Virus genome (UHGV): UHGV-0360402 | Source of the DNA: a virus | Length of the DNA: 41,827 nt | Direction: 5' to 3' (one strand) | Shown: positions 1,353 through 36,668 of the stretch, in pieces | How the letters are laid out: each line of letters begins with the position of its first letter | Numbering within the stretch: position 1 is the stretch's first letter | The notes under the pieces: model-generated | Seen by the model: the letters and a program-made list of their open reading frames with translations, nothing else | The model's database searches: none | What the model was told of the DNA's origin: nothing | Translations under genes and position numbers: made by a program

Positions 1353-1850
1353 TCAGTGCCACGATTTTTGCTTCTTCAGTGAATCGTATTGCTGCTCGCA
1401 GAATTCCCCTGCGATACGATACTTTTCAGCCTCAGCTGCTGTTGCGTTGTAAACTCGGTTGCTTTCTTCAAGCATGTCGGCGAGCACACCGATGACCTTG
1501 CTGGCTGGCGTGCCAGGGGGGAAAGATCCGGTATAGTGTTCGGCGAGCCGCCTGGTTTTGTCAAGCTCGGCGCGCATGCTATCAGCAGCGGAATTAGCAT
1601 ACTCAGCATCAGCACGCGCCGCATCGATACGGGATTGTGCTTCACGTTCAATTTGTGTTTTCTCCTGCTCACGCTGTGACCTTAACTTATCATCAGCCTG
1701 TTTCTGATCTTCCTTCGCCTGAGCATACCCGGCATCGTACTGGCGGCTGCCATGCACATTCCAGGCAACAACGCAGCTGGCCACCAGAGCAGCAAGCATC
1801 GACACGATAAGCAACTGTTTCCAGTATGCTTTCACGAATGCCTTGATCAT
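1353..1850 (-). CDS. Rz-like i-spanin
   Basis: N-terminal TM helix then charged coiled-coil; last gene of lysis cassette; ATGA overlap with upstream gene; contains embedded +1 lipoprotein ORF. Confidence 0.75.
   Translation of the reverse strand: MIKAFVKAYWKQLLIVSMLAALVASCVVAWNVHGSRQYDAGYAQAKEDQKQADDKLRSQREQEKTQIEREAQSRIDAARADAEYANSAADSMRAELDKTRRLAEHYTGSFPPGTPASKVIGVLADMLEESNRVYNATAAEAEKYRIAGEFCEQQYDSLKKQKSWH
1376..1624 (-). CDS. Rz1-like o-spanin lipoprotein embedded in Rz (+1 frame)
   Basis: MRRVLMLSMLIPLLIAC signal with lipobox LIAC followed by Pro-rich mature region; entirely inside Rz; no strong SD, start uncertain. Confidence 0.55.
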   Translation of the reverse strand: MRRVLMLSMLIPLLIACAPSLTKPGGSPNTIPDLSPLARQPARSSVCSPTCLKKATEFTTQQQLRLKSIVSQGNSASSNTIH

Positions 1851-2071
1851 ATACTTACCTTCGGCTGAAATCGGCGAACGTTAATTGGCTCACCATATGG
1901 CCATGACCAATTCAGCCAGGTAAATGTTTTCAGCTCGCACATCGCATCGAAAAATTCACCAGGATCGATGTCGGAATAGCTGCAAACTATTTCCAGACCA
2001 CGTTCTGTTTCTTGCAAAGCAACTGTATCTGTTTCCCAGCGGGGAATGAGCAAAGAAAATAGTTTATTCAT
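1847..2071 (-). CDS. Hypothetical 74-aa protein in lysis cassette
   Basis: ATG 2071 overlaps endolysin stop (ATGA); AAGGTG RBS; coupled to Rz start. Confidence 0.5.
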
Positions 2072-2694
2072 AAAAGCACCTTCTTGGCCGAAAGATACCG
2101 TACACGGCGATCGTCGATGCCGTTCCGGCCACCATTGATAATCAGAGTTACACGTGCAATATCGCCGGTATACTTCATGCATCCTTTGCTGGCGAAGAAC
2201 CACGCCGCGCTACGAGCCGCGTATTCGTCCTGCACCAACAGTTCAGGATTCTCCAGCAGGTCCACTTTCAGGCCGTTTCCGCAATCACGATAGTTATTCA
2301 AACCGGTAATCTGGATAAGTCCGCGGCCACGGTAATTCCAGCCATCACCAGAGGCATTGTTCCCCATGCGTTTGCTGTACACCAGATTGGCAATCGCACG
2401 CTGGCGCTCAGGTGGCAATGGTGGCTCACCTGCACGACGACCCAATGCGTTAGCCTGTCCCTGAGTAAGACGACCGGCACGAACGAAGTTAGCCAGTCCG
2501 GTGACGCTGTAATTGAAATTCTCCTGCAACCTGGTGAAGCCACCAGACTCATGCCCGACCTGAGCAATAAACATTGCCTGATCTTCGGGTTTTCTGATAC
2601 CAAACTCTTTCATCGCAGAAGTTATATGCGAGAACCAGCGTGCGGCCAGAGCCTCGCTAATACCAGCAGCTCGCTGGAATTGTTTAATCTCCAT
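2068..2694 (-). CDS. Endolysin, GH19 chitinase-like fold
   Basis: Start ATG 2694 (MEIKQF) with GAGGT RBS; motifs [12 protein letters not shown] and [11 protein letters not shown] typical of family-19 lysozyme-type endolysins; long ORF-track version is an N-terminal over-extension. Confidence 0.8.
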
Positions 2695-2992
2695 GTTTAG
2701 ACCTCGATGTTTTGAAAATCTGAACAACGTTACCGCGTGTTTTAATAACCGCGGCAAGCATGACAGCGTTGATAATGACCTCAGATAAATCCACAGCCAT
2801 TGGCGTACGTAACCAGATTGCATAGGCGACACGAACAGGAATACTGGCCGCAGCAACAATAAGGAAATAAGCAAGCCACCCTCCCCATCTTCGATGTTGA
2901 GAGCCGTTACGCCGGAATGTGACAACGCGAATTGCTATGCCAGTACAAATAATTGCATTGGTGATAAGCAAAACAAGCTCATTAGTTACCAT
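2684..2992 (-). CDS. Small membrane protein, holin or antiholin-like
   Basis: 102 aa with 2-3 predicted TM helices; overlaps both neighbours. Confidence 0.6.
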
Positions 2993-3383
2993 CGCCTTTT
3001 CTCCCAGGAATTAACTGGCGTGGATTATCAGAACGGTGATAGAGCCATATACCAATTCGCACTGCGACAATTGCTGACACGAATGCGCCAGCAGAGAAAA
3101 CAATCCCTTTCTCGAAAGAGTCCTGCGTGATGGTAGGTATCATGCTGGCTATTCCGATAAGAATTGATGTTGTTGGTTTGTAAAAGAGAAGACCACAAAG
3201 AAAGCTGAGTATCGACAAGAGTACACGACGACGAACAGGATACTCTACAGCAGAGGTAACAAATATTACCGCACCAGCCAGAGCACCGAGAGCCACCTCT
3301 GGCGGAACGCCGTAGACGACAGAGGCCAGCGCACCCAAGCTTAACCCTTGATTCAGTGAATCCGCCGTAACCGTGCCATTCAT
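2982..3383 (-). CDS. Holin-like membrane protein
   Basis: 133 aa from ATG 3383 (GTG alternative at 3392); several hydrophobic helices; first gene after tailspike. Confidence 0.6.
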   Translation of the reverse strand: MNGTVTADSLNQGLSLGALASVVYGVPPEVALGALAGAVIFVTSAVEYPVRRRVLLSILSFLCGLLFYKPTTSILIGIASMIPTITQDSFEKGIVFSAGAFVSAIVAVRIGIWLYHRSDNPRQLIPGRKGDGN

Positions 3384-3480
3384 GGTAACCACCGTTTATT
3401 GTGCATAAAAACCCCCTTAGAAGATGAGGTCCATCATACACAATAAACCATTTACGGATAATAATTACCTAAACTTGGTC

Positions 3481-6132
3481 TTATTTTGATTCCAATAGTT
3501 CGAGTCGCTCTTCAATACGATCGCATCGGCGGCGCTGATATGCAGCCTCAAGCCAAGCGCACTGGTCAGGCCGTATGCCCCATGAACTACCCGCTTTTTT
3601 AACCAGCCTCTGTTCTCCGGTGTCATATTCGACGGTGACCAACTCACCAGACGCATCGGTAATCTCTTTAGTCGCGATTACCGGCTCAAAAATATCGTCC
3701 CACTCGTCATAGCAAAGAAGGCCAAATCTGGTTCCATCAATTCCGTGCGCCAGGAATACATCTCTTACCTGCTGAGCCATGACGCCAAAATGCCATCTGG
3801 CACCATCGCCCTTCATGGATATAGCGTCGAGCCATCGATACGCCACAACAGAAATATCGCCCCAGGCATCAAGAATGCTGTCTCTATCAGAAGAAAGCAT
3901 TTCACTTAAATCTGATATTGCCTCGGGATTGGTTTTCAGCGTGGCATCTGATGAAACGGTTGGGGCATTTGCAAAGTAGGCGTCTTTAATACGAAACGAT
4001 GCCTGACCAAAATTATAGGTATTGTCAGCAAACGGGCGAAGACCTGTATTATAAAACCGCCAGCGTATGGTTCCTCCCAATGCTGTCGGGTCGCTGTTGC
4101 ATGCAATATCCACCGTGGTGGCAGACCTAAACACAGAAGAACTACCGCCCAATACCAAGCTATTTGCGCTAGCTGTAGCCTGCTGGTCAAGGACCAATAT
4201 TTTCTGAGAGTTTGTAGTTGCACCGGCATATGATGATGCAGTGATGCGGTTTAATTGGTTTGTATCAGGATCTGCGTTTTGCTGAATGGTTAAGTTAGAT
4301 GCCCACTGTGCCGGTCGCTGGCGCACAAATACAAAGTCACCAGAAGGATTAGTTGCAACCAAATAACTAATGCCACTATCAGATGAATAATAGTTGACTA
4401 TAAAAGTCTGATTATTCGCATTCAGTATTTCAACATATGTGCTGGAAGGGATTGCCACGCCAGATATATCAGCAATGCTGACAGTCCCTGTGTAAAAATT
4501 AAATGCCTTCTGACTCATCTCCTGCATATAGCGAAGAATTTCAGTCATGTTAGTGAACAACGTACCATCTACAGGGTTAACAATCCCCTTCGCACTACGG
4601 GGATATACCCCAATGCTCGCGTGATCGATATCAAATCCGCGGTAAAGCCTGGATGCAGGTGTAAAATCGATAGCATCTTTATCAGTGGAGAAATCTTCGA
4701 AAATAACCAAACCTGAATTGTAAGGTTCAGAGCCAGTTCTTTCCTGATGAATGTAAAGTGAATAAATGGATTTTCCATCCTGAGAAACACAAACGCCTTC
4801 ATTTTCTATGCGAGTGACGTTCAATCCTGCGGCTTTCATTAAATCCATCATGGCCTGAGGATGAAGCATTGATTCAGTTCGCTTTGTACCGTCAGGGTTA
4901 AAAACTTTGCTGCCCTGATATTCGTTATATCCTGCGCTTCCTGCCCCATCAGCTATGAAGCCGCCATAGCCGCAGACAAAGTAGTTATCACCTACCGCAA
5001 TACCCTGACGCTTGTTGAAATAAGGCGCATAAGGTGAGGTGCTTTTAGTTACATACCCAACATCATGTAACGGCAGCGTTATAGTTGACAGGCGATTGAA
5101 ACCACTGTCGAACACTGCAAGTACAGTTCTTGTGATTTTCTGTCCTACTTCTGGCGCATTCTGCTCAACGAGCCATATACCTCTTCTGTAGCTGAACTGG
5201 TTGAATAATCCAACATCATGGTTTTGTACAAGAGGCAGATTGCTTCCGTATAATGCCCCCTCCATATTAAATTCACGCAGTATTCCGTTTGTGTGACCAA
5301 CAAACATTTTTTTTGGGCCATAGTCTGACGTAACCACGATTCCTTCAGCAGCGAAGCCTGGGCCGCCAGCCTGAACATAGAAATAACCTTGATAAATACC
5401 AGATATGTTAAATACTGCGACGACATTATTCGTCTGTTTAGGCTCAAATGGATAAGTGATGTATATCAAATCTTCGCTAACGCAGAATCCTTGAGGATAC
5501 ATATAAGTTGCTGACGGGTTAGCAGCCATAATCGCATCATATTCAGGAAAAAGAAGCGGCATCGTAGCTACAATCTTTCTTTGGTGATTTGTAAAAATAT
5601 CGTTTTTAGCGCTGTTAGGTGTAGGCGTTACACCTCCAGTAAAAAGATCATCAACATAACCTTTATTGACAGCATCGTTTCTGTCAGTGGCATTTGCTAG
5701 ATTTGATATCTTATTATTTTTTGCATCATAATAGTTAGCCAGAATGCTTGGTTTTATAAGTGCTAACCTCATCCATGAAAAACACTTTTGAATAAGCATT
5801 GTCAGTTTATCGAACGCGTCTTCATGTACCTCAGCGAAGAACTTACCCTGATTACGCAAATCAGTATCCTGCGTAACCGGGAGCTCTCGTGATATAGAAA
5901 TATGATAACCGTTAGCCAACGCCTTCGACAGAATTACATTACCGCCATTATATCCTCCAGCATTGGTTACTGTGTAGTCAGTATCCAGAACCAATTCTGT
6001 TACGTTCCCGTTCAGGTCAGACACCTGAACAACCAGGTCGGATTTTTTGAAAATACGGAAGGTATACGGAAATGATGTCGTAGCTCCGTTACCAGTGTAT
6101 TCGTTGTGGTCAACTTCGGTTGAGACCGTCAT
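3481..6132 (-). CDS. Tailspike / receptor-binding protein (883 aa)
   Basis: GGAG RBS; N-terminal ~150 aa resemble the T7 gp17-type adaptor-binding domain (FPYTF, TDYTV motifs); long C-terminal part likely receptor-binding or depolymerase. Confidence 0.8.
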   Translation of the reverse strand: MTVSTEVDHNEYTGNGATTSFPYTFRIFKKSDLVVQVSDLNGNVTELVLDTDYTVTNAGGYNGGNVILSKALANGYHISISRELPVTQDTDLRNQGKFFAEVHEDAFDKLTMLIQKCFSWMRLALIKPSILANYYDAKNNKISNLANATDRNDAVNKGYVDDLFTGGVTPTPNSAKNDIFTNHQRKIVATMPLLFPEYDAIMAANPSATYMYPQGFCVSEDLIYITYPFEPKQTNNVVAVFNISGIYQGYFYVQAGGPGFAAEGIVVTSDYGPKKMFVGHTNGILREFNMEGALYGSNLPLVQNHDVGLFNQFSYRRGIWLVEQNAPEVGQKITRTVLAVFDSGFNRLSTITLPLHDVGYVTKSTSPYAPYFNKRQGIAVGDNYFVCGYGGFIADGAGSAGYNEYQGSKVFNPDGTKRTESMLHPQAMMDLMKAAGLNVTRIENEGVCVSQDGKSIYSLYIHQERTGSEPYNSGLVIFEDFSTDKDAIDFTPASRLYRGFDIDHASIGVYPRSAKGIVNPVDGTLFTNMTEILRYMQEMSQKAFNFYTGTVSIADISGVAIPSSTYVEILNANNQTFIVNYYSSDSGISYLVATNPSGDFVFVRQRPAQWASNLTIQQNADPDTNQLNRITASSYAGATTNSQKILVLDQQATASANSLVLGGSSSVFRSATTVDIACNSDPTALGGTIRWRFYNTGLRPFADNTYNFGQASFRIKDAYFANAPTVSSDATLKTNPEAISDLSEMLSSDRDSILDAWGDISVVAYRWLDAISMKGDGARWHFGVMAQQVRDVFLAHGIDGTRFGLLCYDEWDDIFEPVIATKEITDASGELVTVEYDTGEQRLVKKAGSSWGIRPDQCAWLEAAYQRRRCDRIEERLELLESK

Positions 6133-6236: not shown

Positions 6237-6251
6237 TTACCTTTCAGGTGA
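6237..6251. promoter_or_regulatory. Operator-like site TTACCtttcaGGTGA
   Basis: Member of TTACC-N5-GGTAA family (one mismatch); 40 bp upstream of LexA box. Confidence 0.5.
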
Positions 6252-6290: not shown

Positions 6291-6306
6291 CTGTATAAAT
6301 ATACAG
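6291..6306 (+). promoter_or_regulatory. LexA (SOS) box CTGTATAAATATACAG
   Basis: CTGT-N8-ACAG with AT-rich centre, 18/20 to TACTGTATATATATACAGTA; 22 bp upstream of ATG 6328. Confidence 0.8.
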
Positions 6307-6327: not shown

Positions 6328-6585
6328 ATGCAGCAGTATCACTATCCACTGGAAGACGGATTTACCGAAAGGATTCACACGCCGGGAGGCGTCAGGTCAC
6401 TGGTGGAGGGATCGCACTTGATGAAATTACTCCGGGATCTCGATAAGGATGGATTTAATGTCGATGGCCCACTTGCCGAACTGACTGCACTGATTAACTA
6501 CGTCACCAGCTCACAGATGTCTATGCGGGATCTGCAAACACATCTCGACTATTGTGCCGAACAATTACGAAAACAAACCCGGTAA
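6328..6585 (+). CDS. Small SOS-controlled protein (85 aa), stand-alone copy of the C-terminal module shared by the two antirepressor genes; candidate antirepressor
   Basis: GGAGA RBS; LexA box in promoter; alignable to C-termini of 7736-8392 and 9256-10194 products (LM-LL-DG-AELT-RD-QTH). Confidence 0.7.
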   Translation: MQQYHYPLEDGFTERIHTPGGVRSLVEGSHLMKLLRDLDKDGFNVDGPLAELTALINYVTSSQMSMRDLQTHLDYCAEQLRKQTR

Positions 6586-6591
6586 ATTTAA

Positions 6592-6609
6592 AGGCCGCAA
6601 GAGCGGCCT
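6592..6609. terminator. Hairpin between convergent genes (aggccgc-aaga-gcggcct)
   Basis: GC stem directly after stop of 6328-6585; overlaps 3' end of minus-strand gene. Confidence 0.5.
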
Positions 6610-7336
6610 ATCGTTTCGCTTTGTGCTCATCCCAGCACGTTTTGCACCATGCCATTAAGCCGTCCGCATTTTGATTATTAGGGTAAAAGCTGGTTCGTTT
6701 TCTGCGGACATTACAAATTGGGCACCACTTCATATGGCGTGTATTCTTTGGGCCATCGAGACACCTTGCACACCATTTAGTCAATCCATCTGGATTTTTT
6801 GACGATTTCCTGAATTTTTCATATGGAAGGTTTATTCTGCATCGCAAGCACTGCTTGCTACCACTTGAAACTCTGTTAGCTGATTCTTCTTTTGGCGGCG
6901 ATACAGAAGGTATTCTTGCTGGCTCTGATATTGCCTGAGGTGCTTTTTTAGATGACTGAGACGATATGTCATCACCAGGGAATCTTCCATGATATGCCGG
7001 ACGCGTTGACACTCCAGGTGGAATCTCAGCTGTAAACGGCTTTGGCTGAATCAGTTGCCTCTCTTTTGCTAACTCCTGCTGTTTATAATATGTCTGGATT
7101 ACCGCACTATCATAAGCAGGAGGTGCGGAAATATTAGGCGCATTACCTCCAGTTTTTTGAAACTGAGTAGAGGTGTGTTCTATCACCTGTGTACGATTAA
7201 TCGTTATCTCCCCATCTTCGGTCTTTATCGTTTTGTTATGATTAACGACCGTACGATCAGAGATCTTAGTCTTGTTCTGGTTGATAACGTAAATAATCAC
7301 CGCAACCACACCAACAACTATCCAGAAAACTTCCAT
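6608..7336 (-). CDS. Membrane-anchored protein with two C-terminal CxxC...WCxxC zinc-ribbon repeats (242 aa)
   Basis: GAGGA RBS; N-terminal TM helix; tandem Cys motifs CLRC...WCARC and CPIC...WCKTC; operator at 7357-7371 just upstream. Confidence 0.65.
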   Translation of the reverse strand: MEVFWIVVGVVAVIIYVINQNKTKISDRTVVNHNKTIKTEDGEITINRTQVIEHTSTQFQKTGGNAPNISAPPAYDSAVIQTYYKQQELAKERQLIQPKPFTAEIPPGVSTRPAYHGRFPGDDISSQSSKKAPQAISEPARIPSVSPPKEESANRVSSGSKQCLRCRINLPYEKFRKSSKNPDGLTKWCARCLDGPKNTRHMKWCPICNVRRKRTSFYPNNQNADGLMAWCKTCWDEHKAKR

Positions 7337-7356
7337 TGCTTTTCCTCACAATAACA

Positions 7357-7371
7357 TTACCTTAAAGGTAA
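7357..7371. promoter_or_regulatory. Operator-like palindrome TTACCttaaaGGTAA
   Basis: Perfect half-sites; between divergent genes 6608-7336 and 7736-8392. Confidence 0.6.
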
Positions 7372-7449
7372 TATCTTGCTTTCAGGTGATCAAGCGTTAA
7401 ACGCAATCAACCAAATACGGTTGATTTTAATATTTCTTCGCGTTTATCA

Positions 7450-7464
7450 TTACCTTTGCGGTAA
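7450..7464. promoter_or_regulatory. Operator-like palindrome TTACCtttgcGGTAA
   Basis: Perfect half-sites; abuts candidate promoter TTACAT-18-TAGTAA at 7467-7496. Confidence 0.6.
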
Positions 7465-7497
7465 ATTTACATTGCACTCCTCTTGTGCCATAGTAAT

Positions 7498-7577
7498 CGG
7501 GCACTGGCAAAATCCAGTGCCGGGATTGGTCTCCCGGATTACTAAGTGGCGCATACCACGCCAGACGTGGTTTTTTT
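7498..7577 (+). ncRNA. Candidate small RNA or terminated leader upstream of antA-like gene
   Basis: Promoter-like elements 7467-7496; two stable hairpins (gcactgg/ccagtgc; cggga/tcccg) then terminator hairpin ccacg/cgtgg plus T7; the overlapping 110-aa ORF lacks an RBS. Confidence 0.4.
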
Positions 7578-7735
7578 ATGCGTATAGCACAGTCATGCCA
7601 GAATTATGGTGGGCTGAATGGGGGTCCGAAAGGACGCCGGTACCACTTAGGCCGGTAAGACCAACTCCGTTCAGTTCACCACCATCTGATTGGTCTCAGC
7701 GGTGGTGATGTAATTCGCTAAGTGGAGACGCCATC

Positions 7736-8392
7736 ATGAACGCTCAACTCATCCCCGTATTCAACGGCACTATATCTAACGAAACAGCCCTACTTTGTAA
7801 TGCCCGCGATCTGCACGCTTTTTTAGGTGTTAAAAAGGTGTTTGCAGCATGGATTACAAATCGCATATCAGAATACGAATTCATTGAAAATCAAGACTAT
7901 ATTTTGCTTTCCAATTTGGGAAAGCAAACATCTGGTAGAGGCGGCCACAACCGCAAAGAGTACCACCTCACCCTTGATACAGCCAAAGAGCTGGCGATGG
8001 TCGAGCGTAACGAAAAAGGTCGCCAGGTGCGACGCTACTTCATTGAATGCGAGAAACGTTTAAGACAACAAGAAACAAAAGTGGAGAAGGTCTTGTCAGG
8101 CTTCATGCCCGCCATTATGGAGGCGATCAAGCTGGAAGACAAAAAAGAATACAGCGCCCCACTGAAGCCCGGCTACCGTAGCCTGATTCATTCGCCGTCT
8201 GGTGTTCTCGGCCTGACGGAGAACTCACTGCTGATGAATTTGCTGAACCAGTTACAGGAAGACGGGCACGACGTATCGGGCGCGGCGGCGGAACTGACCA
8301 CCATGTTCTGCTACATCGTCGGTGTGAGCAAATGCCTGCGTGATATCCAGACCCACGCGGAGTACATCAACGACAAGGCAGGGTTCTTCTGA
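7736..8392 (+). CDS. Antirepressor-type protein: AntA-like N-terminal domain fused to shared C-terminal module (218 aa)
   Basis: GGAG RBS; N-terminus matches AntA-type pattern ([39 protein letters not shown]); C-terminal 78 aa near-identical to C-terminus of 9256-10194 product. Confidence 0.8.
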
Positions 8393-26693: not shown

Positions 26694-26708
26694 TTACCTT
26701 TCAGGTAA
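26694..26708. promoter_or_regulatory. Operator-like palindrome TTACCtttcaGGTAA
   Basis: Perfect half-sites; about 90 bp upstream of 26603 start. Confidence 0.6.
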
Positions 26709-27030: not shown

Positions 27031-27107
27031 GTGGCATTAGCTCAGTTGGACAGAGCAACCGCCTTCTAAGCGGTTGGTCGCAGGTTCGAATCCTGCATGC
27101 CACGCCA
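27031..27107 (+). tRNA. tRNA-Arg (anticodon UCU)
   Basis: Full cloverleaf folds by hand: 7-bp acceptor stem, D stem gctc/gagc, anticodon stem accgc/gcggt with loop cuUCUaa (anticodon 27065-27067), T arm gcagg-TTCGAAT-cctgc, encoded CCA. Confidence 0.9.
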
Positions 27108-35965: not shown

Positions 35966-36028
35966 TCACCCATAAGGTAACAAAAATCAAGGATAGTTAC
36001 CTATGGGGTGCATTTACCTGTTGGGTAA
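35966..36028. promoter_or_regulatory. Tripartite operator region between cro-like and repressor genes
   Basis: Three sites: TCACCcataaGGTAA (35966-35980), TTACCtatggGGTGC (35997-36011), TTACCtgttgGGTAA (36014-36028); overlap a candidate leftward promoter. Confidence 0.65.
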
Positions 36029-36083: not shown

Positions 36084-36668
36084 ATGAAAAGTATCCAGGA
36101 CGTCCGCAGGCAAAATCTCAACGACTTGATCGACCGTGAATTCAATGGTGTTCAGACGCGGATGGCAGAAAAACTTGGAACTCAGGCAAATCTGGTAAAC
36201 CGCTGGGCTCTTGGCAAGAAGGTTATCGGCGACCAGGTTGCGCGAAAAATTGAAGCTGCCGCCAATAAACCCCGTAACTGGCTTGATATCGATCGCTCGC
36301 TTTCTCAGGAAGGTTTTCAGCCTGTCGGCCCAAGCGACATTGGTCAGCTGGCAGCTCACAACCTGGAACGCTGGATGAGTGAAAGCCGCGACCTTTCAAC
36401 TCAGGGAAAACTTCACCGCGCATCCGGCGTCGCCCAGGTGACAATAAGCCGCCTGTTAAACAATGAGGTCAGCGTTTCCATTTCCACCCTGGAGAATGTT
36501 GCATCTGCATTCGGGCGTCACGGATATGAACTACTGATTCATCCACATGACCCTGCAACTATCAACTATGACCGCTCGCGCTACGCATTGTTACCTGAAA
36601 CAGAGAAGGCAAAGATCGAAAGTTACATTGAATTTGTCATCAACCAGAACGAAAAAAACAAACAATAA
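36084..36668 (+). CDS. Prophage repressor candidate (194 aa), HTH, no S24 peptidase domain
   Basis: N-terminal HTH (GVQTRMAEKLGTQANLVNRWALGKK) and second HTH-like segment; no Ser/Lys autocleavage motifs; divergent from cro-like gene; own terminator. Confidence 0.65.
   Translation: MKSIQDVRRQNLNDLIDREFNGVQTRMAEKLGTQANLVNRWALGKKVIGDQVARKIEAAANKPRNWLDIDRSLSQEGFQPVGPSDIGQLAAHNLERWMSESRDLSTQGKLHRASGVAQVTISRLLNNEVSVSISTLENVASAFGRHGYELLIHPHDPATINYDRSRYALLPETEKAKIESYIEFVINQNEKNKQ

Follow-up and report, generated by a model that had tools for sequence, protein, structure and literature searches.

What is the function of the protein encoded at positions 6608-7336 (minus strand) of the virus genome UHGV-0360402? 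We studied this question on the whole stretch of 41,827 nucleotides (nt; in the following, the window), which is an epsilon15/phiV10-like (Uetakevirus-like) Escherichia coli prophage inserted beside yfgI. The open reading frame (ORF) of 242 amino acids (aa) is a genuine, conserved, uncharacterised prophage gene. It encodes a predicted membrane anchor joined to two predicted zinc fingers. We tentatively read its product as a repressor-linked superinfection-exclusion or abortive-infection factor that would bind nucleic acid at the membrane, where the functional step is drawn from domain relationships and gene neighbourhood only.

The coding sequence starts with ATG, ends with the stop codon at 6608-6610 and is preceded by the Shine-Dalgarno motif GAGGA (7343-7347, minus strand), with the ATG 6 nt downstream of it. 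ORFs that overlap 6608-7336 are at most 65 aa long. The identical 242-aa protein is present on 840 contigs, and homologues form 33 clusters at 90% identity across Enterobacterales, i.e., in Escherichia, Superficieibacter, Enterobacter, Citrobacter, Salmonella, Serratia, Providencia, Pectobacterium and Buttiauxella. Within the alignment of these clusters, the transmembrane (TM) helix, a juxtamembrane segment and the fingers are kept, while the linker between them differs in both sequence and length. Based on 69 distinct alleles, the ratio of nonsynonymous to synonymous substitution rates (dN/dS) is 0.24 for the whole gene, with regional values of 0.16 (TM helix), 0.14 (juxtamembrane hairpin), 0.65 (linker) and 0.06 (fingers). 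Over its full length, the protein matches PHROG 6762, a family without assigned function. In every source, the database name of the identical protein and of its family homologues is 'hypothetical protein', e.g., WP_021537563 in E. coli SCU-101.

All eight cysteines of the protein are found in CxxC pairs (163/166, 189/192, 205/208 and 231/234), and four such motifs were observed in none of 100,000 shuffles of its sequence. They make up two predicted zinc fingers. Finger 1 covers residues 161-195 (C163, C166, W188, C189, C192; 6752-6856, minus strand) with a predicted local distance difference test score (pLDDT) above 90, while finger 2 covers residues 203-237 (C205, C208, W230, C231, C234; 6626-6730, minus strand) and matches the finger regions of endonuclease VII and HNH families from PHROG. 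An earlier reading of the letters alone (in the following, the sequence-only reading) had already recognised two C-x2-C...W-C-x2-C repeats. These are present, though not with the spacing of x17-20 given there, as both repeats read C-x2-C-x21-W-C-x2-C. The finger cysteines and the tryptophan are invariant in the alignment of the wider family.

For the structure, a full-length AlphaFold2 model was built with the family alignment, and the C-terminal domain was also modelled alone. This domain (residues 160-242) reaches a pLDDT above 90 in the full-length model and 88 when modelled alone. In the domain model, the first CxxC of each unit forms a knuckle between strands, and the second CxxC opens a helix (H36-40 and H78-87 of the domain). 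In this predicted structure, the fingers look treble-clef-like and less like a classical zinc ribbon, in which beta-hairpins would carry both CxxC knuckles; the sequence-only reading had called them zinc ribbons.

With regard to Pfam, Stc1 (PF12898) is the sole family found for the protein at E <=1. Its score of 21.1 bits (E 4.7e-4) does not reach the gathering cut-off of 24.8 bits, and all eight conserved zinc-ligand positions of the tandem Stc1 fingers are present. Judged from this score and the Stc1 matches of its profile relatives given below, the protein is a divergent Stc1 relative and not a formal PF12898 member. A profile of the finger domain retrieves 3,292 cluster representatives at E <=1e-3. 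Among its best 150 matches, the layout of TM helix, hairpin, linker and two C-terminal fingers within 150-240 aa is seen in at least 41 distinct 50%-identity clusters, such that the architecture is less unusual than the sequence-only reading had it. The remainder of these 150 matches are soluble proteins with 2-14 fingers. Pfam families assigned to 94 soluble profile relatives are mostly Stc1 (57; best E 2.8e-18), followed by HNH (12) and Endonuclease_7 (11), and others carry Bro-N, KilA-N or T5orf172.

Similar relatives are observed in the other searches. PHROG profiles of endonuclease VII, HNH endonucleases and primase align to the protein via their accessory finger segments only, and Foldseek against viral models finds HNH, beta-beta-alpha-Me, EndoVII and Stc1 proteins with E-values from 1e-6 to 1e-4. 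Remote homology and structure prediction, which the sequence-only reading had proposed as a check, thus gave Stc1-like, treble-clef-like fingers that are related to accessory domains of phage nucleases. When the finger domain was searched by sequence against solved structures, a chance RING match (E 0.96) was all that came up. With the full-length model, Foldseek found no PDB entry below E 1, as the disordered linker spoils the query. We set aside the label 'Lar-like restriction alleviation' of one PHROG family, as only the generic finger is aligned and no Pfam Lar family is listed for the protein.

The protein has no HNH or Endonuclease_7 match in Pfam. Neither of its fingers contains a histidine, and HNH catalysis is therefore not expected. 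Accessory zinc-ribbon domains are known to accompany HNH nickases of phages (PMC3592412). The finger domain is strongly basic, with an isoelectric point of 10 in our protein and net charges of +7 to +19 among 43 family members. We infer that it would bind nucleic acid.

Next, we consider where these fingers are placed. The sole hydrophobic segment of the protein spans residues 1-19 (mean Kyte-Doolittle value 2.33), while all later windows, sampled at every tenth start position, have values of at most 0.14. Hydropathy, an AlphaFold2 helix with pLDDT of about 90 and the flanking charges predict an N-out/C-in TM helix at residues 3-20 (7277-7330, minus strand). Its N-terminal flank is just ME, and its C-terminal flank has a net charge of +2 to +3. 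Within a topology survey of 43 diverse family members, the extracytoplasmic N-terminal flank comprises 0-5 residues in 42/43 cases (usually just Met-Glu; 15 residues in the exception P0075), and the 15 residues following the helix contain a median of 4 Lys/Arg. By prediction, we thus see the features of a bitopic anchor, i.e., a single TM helix, a positive-inside bias and no cleavable signal peptide. Such an N-out/C-in anchor, which would leave almost nothing in the periplasm, is predicted with high confidence. Given the flank lengths and charges, the fingers would therefore be placed in the reducing cytoplasm, without a periplasmic sensor. The sensing of envelope state considered in the sequence-only reading is not supported, as no periplasmic domain is predicted.

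Right after the helix follows a segment with the pattern SDRTV..TIKTEDGEI.I.RTQV (residues 25-57; 7166-7264, minus strand). It is conserved in the family alignments and is predicted to form a long beta-hairpin; the full-length model shows strands 26-39 and 42-55 with low confidence. The adjacent linker (residues 58-157; 6866-7165, minus strand) is rich in Pro, Ser and Ala (14%, 12% and 11% of residues 61-157), and it is predicted to be variable and disordered from composition, pLDDT and length variation. That is, its pLDDT is mostly below 50, except for a lower-confidence helix at residues 77-93 (block means 53-69), and the distance from TM helix to fingers ranges from 44 to 144 residues in the family. 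Hydropathy and composition bear out the single N-terminal TM helix and the Pro/Ser-rich linker of the sequence-only reading. A profile of TM helix and hairpin alone, which was searched for other C-terminal fusions, found only truncated fragments of the same gene.

We also studied how the gene is controlled. A perfect palindromic immunity operator of 17 bp, ATTACCTTAAAGGTAAT (7356-7372), overlaps its predicted -10 element, and the same layout is seen in Serratia, Providencia, Enterobacter and Pectobacterium loci. The underlying motif TTACC-N5-GGTAA is found at 13 sites in the window vs. 0.83 expected. The respective putative sigma-70 promoter (7365-7393, minus strand) comprises the -35 element TTGATC (7388-7393), a 17-nt spacer and the -10 element TACCTT (7365-7370). 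It is not called by a stricter sigma-70 consensus scan and is deduced from a comparison of five genera, in which TTGAnn-16/17-TA(A/C)C(C/T)T with an overlapping palindrome is found upstream of the homologues. The comparison prophages are from Serratia, Enterobacter/Citrobacter-type, Pectobacterium and Providencia hosts. Here, the Providencia phage has its own palindrome variant TTAACC-N5-GGTTAA, and in the Pectobacterium locus the palindrome motif also flanks the repressor gene of that phage.

The operator at 7357 had been taken as shared with antA in the sequence-only reading. The site itself is real, but it is the gene's own operator, and the antA side has a second one, ATTACCTTTGCGGTAAA (7449-7465), at a distance of 93 bp. 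The latter serves a divergent promoter that drives an isrK-like RNA, a C4-like RNA and antA. Between both promoters, we observe the inverted repeat TCAACC-N6-GGTTGA (7407-7424), whose 3' arm overlaps the antA-side -35 element TTGATT and which is also flagged as a terminator-like hairpin.

The prophage repressor is encoded at 36084-36668 (plus strand) and shows two helix-turn-helix (HTH) domains (Pfam HTH_3 and related families) without an S24 peptidase domain. Operator pairs at 35966/36014 and 36726/36788 flank this gene and the divergent cro-like gene, and the TTACC-N5-GGTAA sites are therefore taken as immunity operators. The repressor presumably regulates the operator of our gene in trans. 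A homologous repressor and an island antirepressor are functional in phage ZX5 (PMC9782041). With moderate confidence, we infer that in epsilon15-like prophages the gene would be directly repressed in the lysogen and would fire upon infection or derepression. No LexA box is found near the gene.

The remaining sites are not confined to this part of the genome. That is, operators are found at 6237, 7357, 7450, 8465, 26694, 29884/29902 and 33645/33707 in addition to the two pairs around the repressor, and are thus spread across at least 8 intergenic regions. From this distribution, the repressor appears to directly control many separately promoted genes, beyond the two early operons. The site at 26694 has a TTGACA-17-TACCTT layout like that of our gene and precedes a tRNA gene (27031-27104). 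In phiV10, an imperfect operator, ATTACCCGATAGGTGAT (222-238), is located upstream of oac, an O-acetyltransferase gene described as acting in superinfection immunity. As oac is also preceded by an operator, a nearby operator alone is no proof of silence in the lysogen.

In more distantly related lineages, the gene neighbourhoods of the homologues point to the immunity repressor as well. In Aeromonas phage phiARM81mr, Marinobacterium and Neptunomonas, the homologue follows a cI gene of HTH+S24 type on the same strand with a gap of 15-18 nt that holds only the ribosome-binding site, i.e., a predicted bicistronic operon with cI. In Acinetobacter, it is found behind cI on the same strand with a gap of 17-54 nt, while the homologues of Oceanobacter and Pseudoalteromonas are arranged tail-to-tail with cI. 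Rha or KilA-N genes are the neighbours in Edwardsiella and another Acinetobacter. Overall, homologues are operonic with or beside cI in 7 non-enterobacterial lineages. The family is thus encoded beside or regulated by an immunity repressor, as exclusion genes are, and the place directly behind cI is that of lambda rexAB and of lactococcal sie2009-type genes. Judged from gene order and operator sites, the family is consistently tied to the immunity system, though with opposite sign: some phages would transcribe it together with cI, while in epsilon15-like phages the operator would repress it.

How could such a protein act? For an exclusion or abortive-infection factor, the anchor at residues 3-20 would hold the protein at the inner membrane, with the conserved beta-hairpin just beneath, and the disordered tether of about 100 residues would present the basic domain with its two Cys4 fingers in the cytoplasm. 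With its -10 element covered by the operator, the gene would be off in a stable lysogen and on right after infection or derepression. The tethered fingers would then catch nucleic acid or an entering nucleoprotein complex where foreign phage DNA comes in. The TM/hairpin module would either merely localise this block or oligomerise and damage the membrane. We favour this function because it would be useful both in lysogens and in early lytic growth. Known exclusion genes cover both contexts, i.e., lambda rexAB and lactococcal sie2009 are active in lysogens, while T4 imm and T5 llp act early in infection. There is also a precedent in PdpSau, a prophage protein that causes abortive infection and combines a membrane helix at its N-terminus with a cytoplasmic C-terminus of positive charge (PMC10127798). 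Oligomerisation of the TM/hairpin module, as considered above, would resemble that of abortive-infection proteins such as PdpSau.

A wider proposal is possible but rather doubtful. That is, the family may represent a new and widespread single-gene class of exclusion or abortive-infection factors in gamma-proteobacterial prophages, in which a catalytically empty, nuclease-derived 'DNA catcher' at the inner membrane would be coupled to the immunity switch (cI co-transcribed or operator-gated) and would sense or block incoming DNA at its entry point.

Several points weigh against exclusion by nucleic-acid binding. First, the perfect operator over the -10 element predicts silence in the lysogen, in which case the protein could not protect a resting lysogen. 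The opposite sign of regulation in different phages can be reconciled only by assuming a function that is useful in both contexts. Second, binding of nucleic acid is not assured, as the fingers of the founding Stc1 of S. pombe mediate protein-protein contacts. Third, TM helix and hairpin are strongly conserved, as would be expected if they had a specific partner, which the mechanism outlined above does not name. Finally, neither the literature nor the defence databases lend support: literature searches made for SF0880 and TL-2011b, for Stc1 in phages and for superinfection exclusion by zinc/transmembrane proteins yielded no work on the family, the defence hidden Markov models of PADLOC-DB 2.0 gave 0 families at E <=0.1 for the protein, and NCBIfam was empty as well.

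Given these points, we evaluated what else the fingers could hold. They may bind or sequester a phage regulator (repressor, antirepressor or CII-like) or present it to a membrane protease such as FtsH, and thereby tune establishment or induction of lysogeny, which is essentially the regulator-sequestering idea of the sequence-only reading. The family's position in an operon with or beside cI, its antirepressor-type neighbours (Rha, KilA-N, AntA and Bro-N genes) and the operator over the gene's own -10 element agree with such a lysis-lysogeny modulator, as do the early post-infection expression expected from both regulatory contexts and the ability of Stc1-type fingers to bind protein. Adjacency to cI, however, is equally typical of exclusion genes, and the overwhelmingly nuclease-associated finger relatives point more towards nucleic-acid binding. 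The gene is also dispensable, i.e., phiV10, epsilon15-type phages and ZX5 lack it and run their switch by repressor and antirepressor, and in one myovirus-like prophage the homologue is nowhere near a repressor. We thus consider a role as modulator of the lysis-lysogeny decision unlikely.

If nucleic acid is bound, it could also be the phage's own. The protein would then tether the entering or replicating DNA of its phage to the membrane, similar to p16.7 of phi29, for which the basic domain of nuclease-accessory type, the long flexible linker and the predicted early, repressor-controlled expression would be suitable. Such a tether is clearly improbable, as the gene is accessory and patchy inside one phage lineage, is found in unrelated phage types with different replication modules and is co-transcribed with cI in at least 3 lineages, i.e., it is made in lysogens without phage replication. 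For p16.7 itself, an N-terminal TM anchor, a C-terminal DNA-binding domain and early expression are known. Our protein shares the N-terminal TM helix with a C-terminal domain (DNA-binding in p16.7) and, by prediction, the early expression. In contrast, p16.7 contains a coiled coil, binds DNA through a helical domain and belongs to the replication machinery of a lytic phage, while our gene is an optional cassette that is co-transcribed with cI in some phages.

Even less probable is a host-takeover factor that would tether or compact the host nucleoid at the membrane early in the lytic cycle, or disturb division or segregation. Membrane anchor, basic putative DNA-binding domain and early-type promoter with operator are compatible with it, but a toxic factor co-expressed with cI would harm the lysogens of other lineages, and no similarity to known Kil/DicB-type inhibitors is found by Pfam and PHROG searches. 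The opposite topology, i.e., an uncleaved signal anchor with the eight cysteines disulfide-bonded in the periplasm that blocks a receptor or entry step from outside, is scarcely credible: many exclusion proteins do work in the periplasm and eight cysteines could equally give four disulfides, but the ME flank without positive n-region and the Lys/Arg-rich C-terminal flank favour a cytoplasmic C-terminus by the positive-inside rule in nearly all 43 members, the finger module is common to cytoplasmic nucleases and its net charge of +14 is what one would expect of a nucleic-acid binder.

Returning to the exclusion factor that we favour, its parts can be compared to known systems. Stc1-type (PF12898) modules on phage HNH and endonuclease VII homing-type nucleases share with our protein the finger unit C-x2-C ... 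F ... DG ... (W)C-K-x-C, which they often carry as a tandem, and this likeness is seen both by sequence profile and by predicted structure. Our protein differs from them in that it has no nuclease, Bro-N or other enzymatic domain and that its fingers are fused to anchor, hairpin and long linker. Like the family studied here, lambda rexA/rexB and the lactococcal Sie2009-type genes are membrane-associated prophage accessory genes behind or under the immunity repressor. They show no sequence similarity to our protein, which is encoded by a single gene and has predicted zinc fingers; furthermore, the prediction for epsilon15-like prophages is repression of the gene, not co-expression with the repressor. 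PdpSau of Staphylococcus aureus (PMC10127798) is likewise a prophage accessory gene product with an N-terminal membrane helix and a positive cytoplasmic C-terminal part, but its sequence is unrelated, its host is Gram-positive, zinc fingers are absent, and its link is to lysis genes instead of immunity.

The comparison to ZAS anti-sigma factors is less favourable. Our protein shares the H-x3-C-x2-C string (H201-C205-C208) and, with some of them, membrane anchoring, while it lacks an upstream fourth ligand at ZAS spacing as well as an extracytoplasmic sensor domain. We rejected a ZAS identity and, with it, an anti-sigma-like role as hinted at by the sequence-only reading: His201 varies in the wider family, no Pfam anti-sigma or zf-HC2 family is found, and the predicted fingers are beta-rich and not a helical domain. 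Overall, two ingredients are of already known kinds, i.e., the Stc1-like nuclease-associated finger unit and membrane-anchored prophage accessory proteins near repressor genes. The combination of catalytically empty tandem fingers, N-out/C-in anchor and conserved hairpin, coupled to immunity, was not found described in PADLOC, NCBIfam or the literature.

With regard to its genomic setting, the gene has the tail-fibre gene on one side and the internal-virion-protein genes on the other. It is part of a variable island with antirepressor genes and is divergent from antA, as stated in the sequence-only reading. In a blastn comparison with phiV10, homology ends at 6579 and restarts at about 7450, and phiV10-type phages match the flanks only. 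The roughly 870 bp in between (6580-7449) therefore behave as one insertion/deletion cassette, which comprises terminator, gene and promoter/operator. The terminator is a GC-rich hairpin (6592-6609, minus strand) immediately past the stop codon and is common to a convergent gene of 85 aa. The flanks are matched by 543 E. coli genomes, of which 128 have the cassette. Phage TL-2011b encodes an intact 242-aa ORF at 4408-5136 (minus strand), for which its record has only a misc_feature 'similar to hypothetical protein'. The island also hosts the homologues of Serratia, Providencia, Enterobacter and Pectobacterium, whose orientation varies and which may or may not have antirepressor genes beside them; further homologues are located in one myovirus-like prophage and one small integrative island. 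The label of a prophage moron holds in so far as the cassette is a self-contained accessory unit; given an operator that overlaps its promoter, however, no expression would be expected in the lysogen. A holin or spanin role was dismissed, as the gene lies outside the lysis cassette (1353-3441) and the predicted topology is wrong.

The neighbouring antirepressor modules are controlled in their own ways. Between our gene and antA, an isrK-like RNA (7501-7577, plus strand) and a C4-like antisense RNA (7602-7686, plus strand) score above the Rfam gathering thresholds. The isrK-like RNA of the antA leader is of Hfq-binding type with its own terminator. Judged from sequence, the leader RNAs represent a P1 immI-like RNA-controlled antirepressor module in an epsilon15-like prophage. 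A second module is of P22 immI type, with an Ant protein with P22_AR_N domain (9256-10194, minus strand), a sar antisense RNA (10196-10263, plus strand) and an Arc-like repressor (10525-10986, plus strand). With this module alongside antA, the prophage therefore has two differently regulated antirepressors. AntA (7736-8392) and the P22-type Ant (9256-10194) are identical to each other in their C-terminal ~85 residues.

The convergent 85-aa gene (6328-6585) is epsilon15p19-like (phrog_450), and its product is homologous to this shared C-terminus. Its ATG is preceded at a distance of 22 nt by a near-consensus LexA box, CTGTATAAATATACAG (6291-6306, plus strand). The 85-aa protein is a candidate for an SOS-controlled antirepressor, suggested because the prophage repressor has no S24 cleavage domain. 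A 203-aa ORF at 11029-11640 (plus strand) shows a weak TIR-like (ThsB) match in PADLOC (E 0.006) and matches no Pfam family; perhaps it is an accessory gene related to defence.

If the favoured function is true, a compact one-gene mechanism would join the prophage-encoded systems of phage-phage competition. The gene is common in E. coli and is also found in Serratia, Providencia, Enterobacter, Acinetobacter, Aeromonas and marine gamma-proteobacteria. The 'Stc1-like' finger module, which is very abundant in phage nucleases, would furthermore gain a role, and the regulon of the epsilon15-like repressor would be shown to reach many separately promoted accessory genes. This would bear on the host range of phages used in therapy and on the annotation of a recurrent 'hypothetical protein'.

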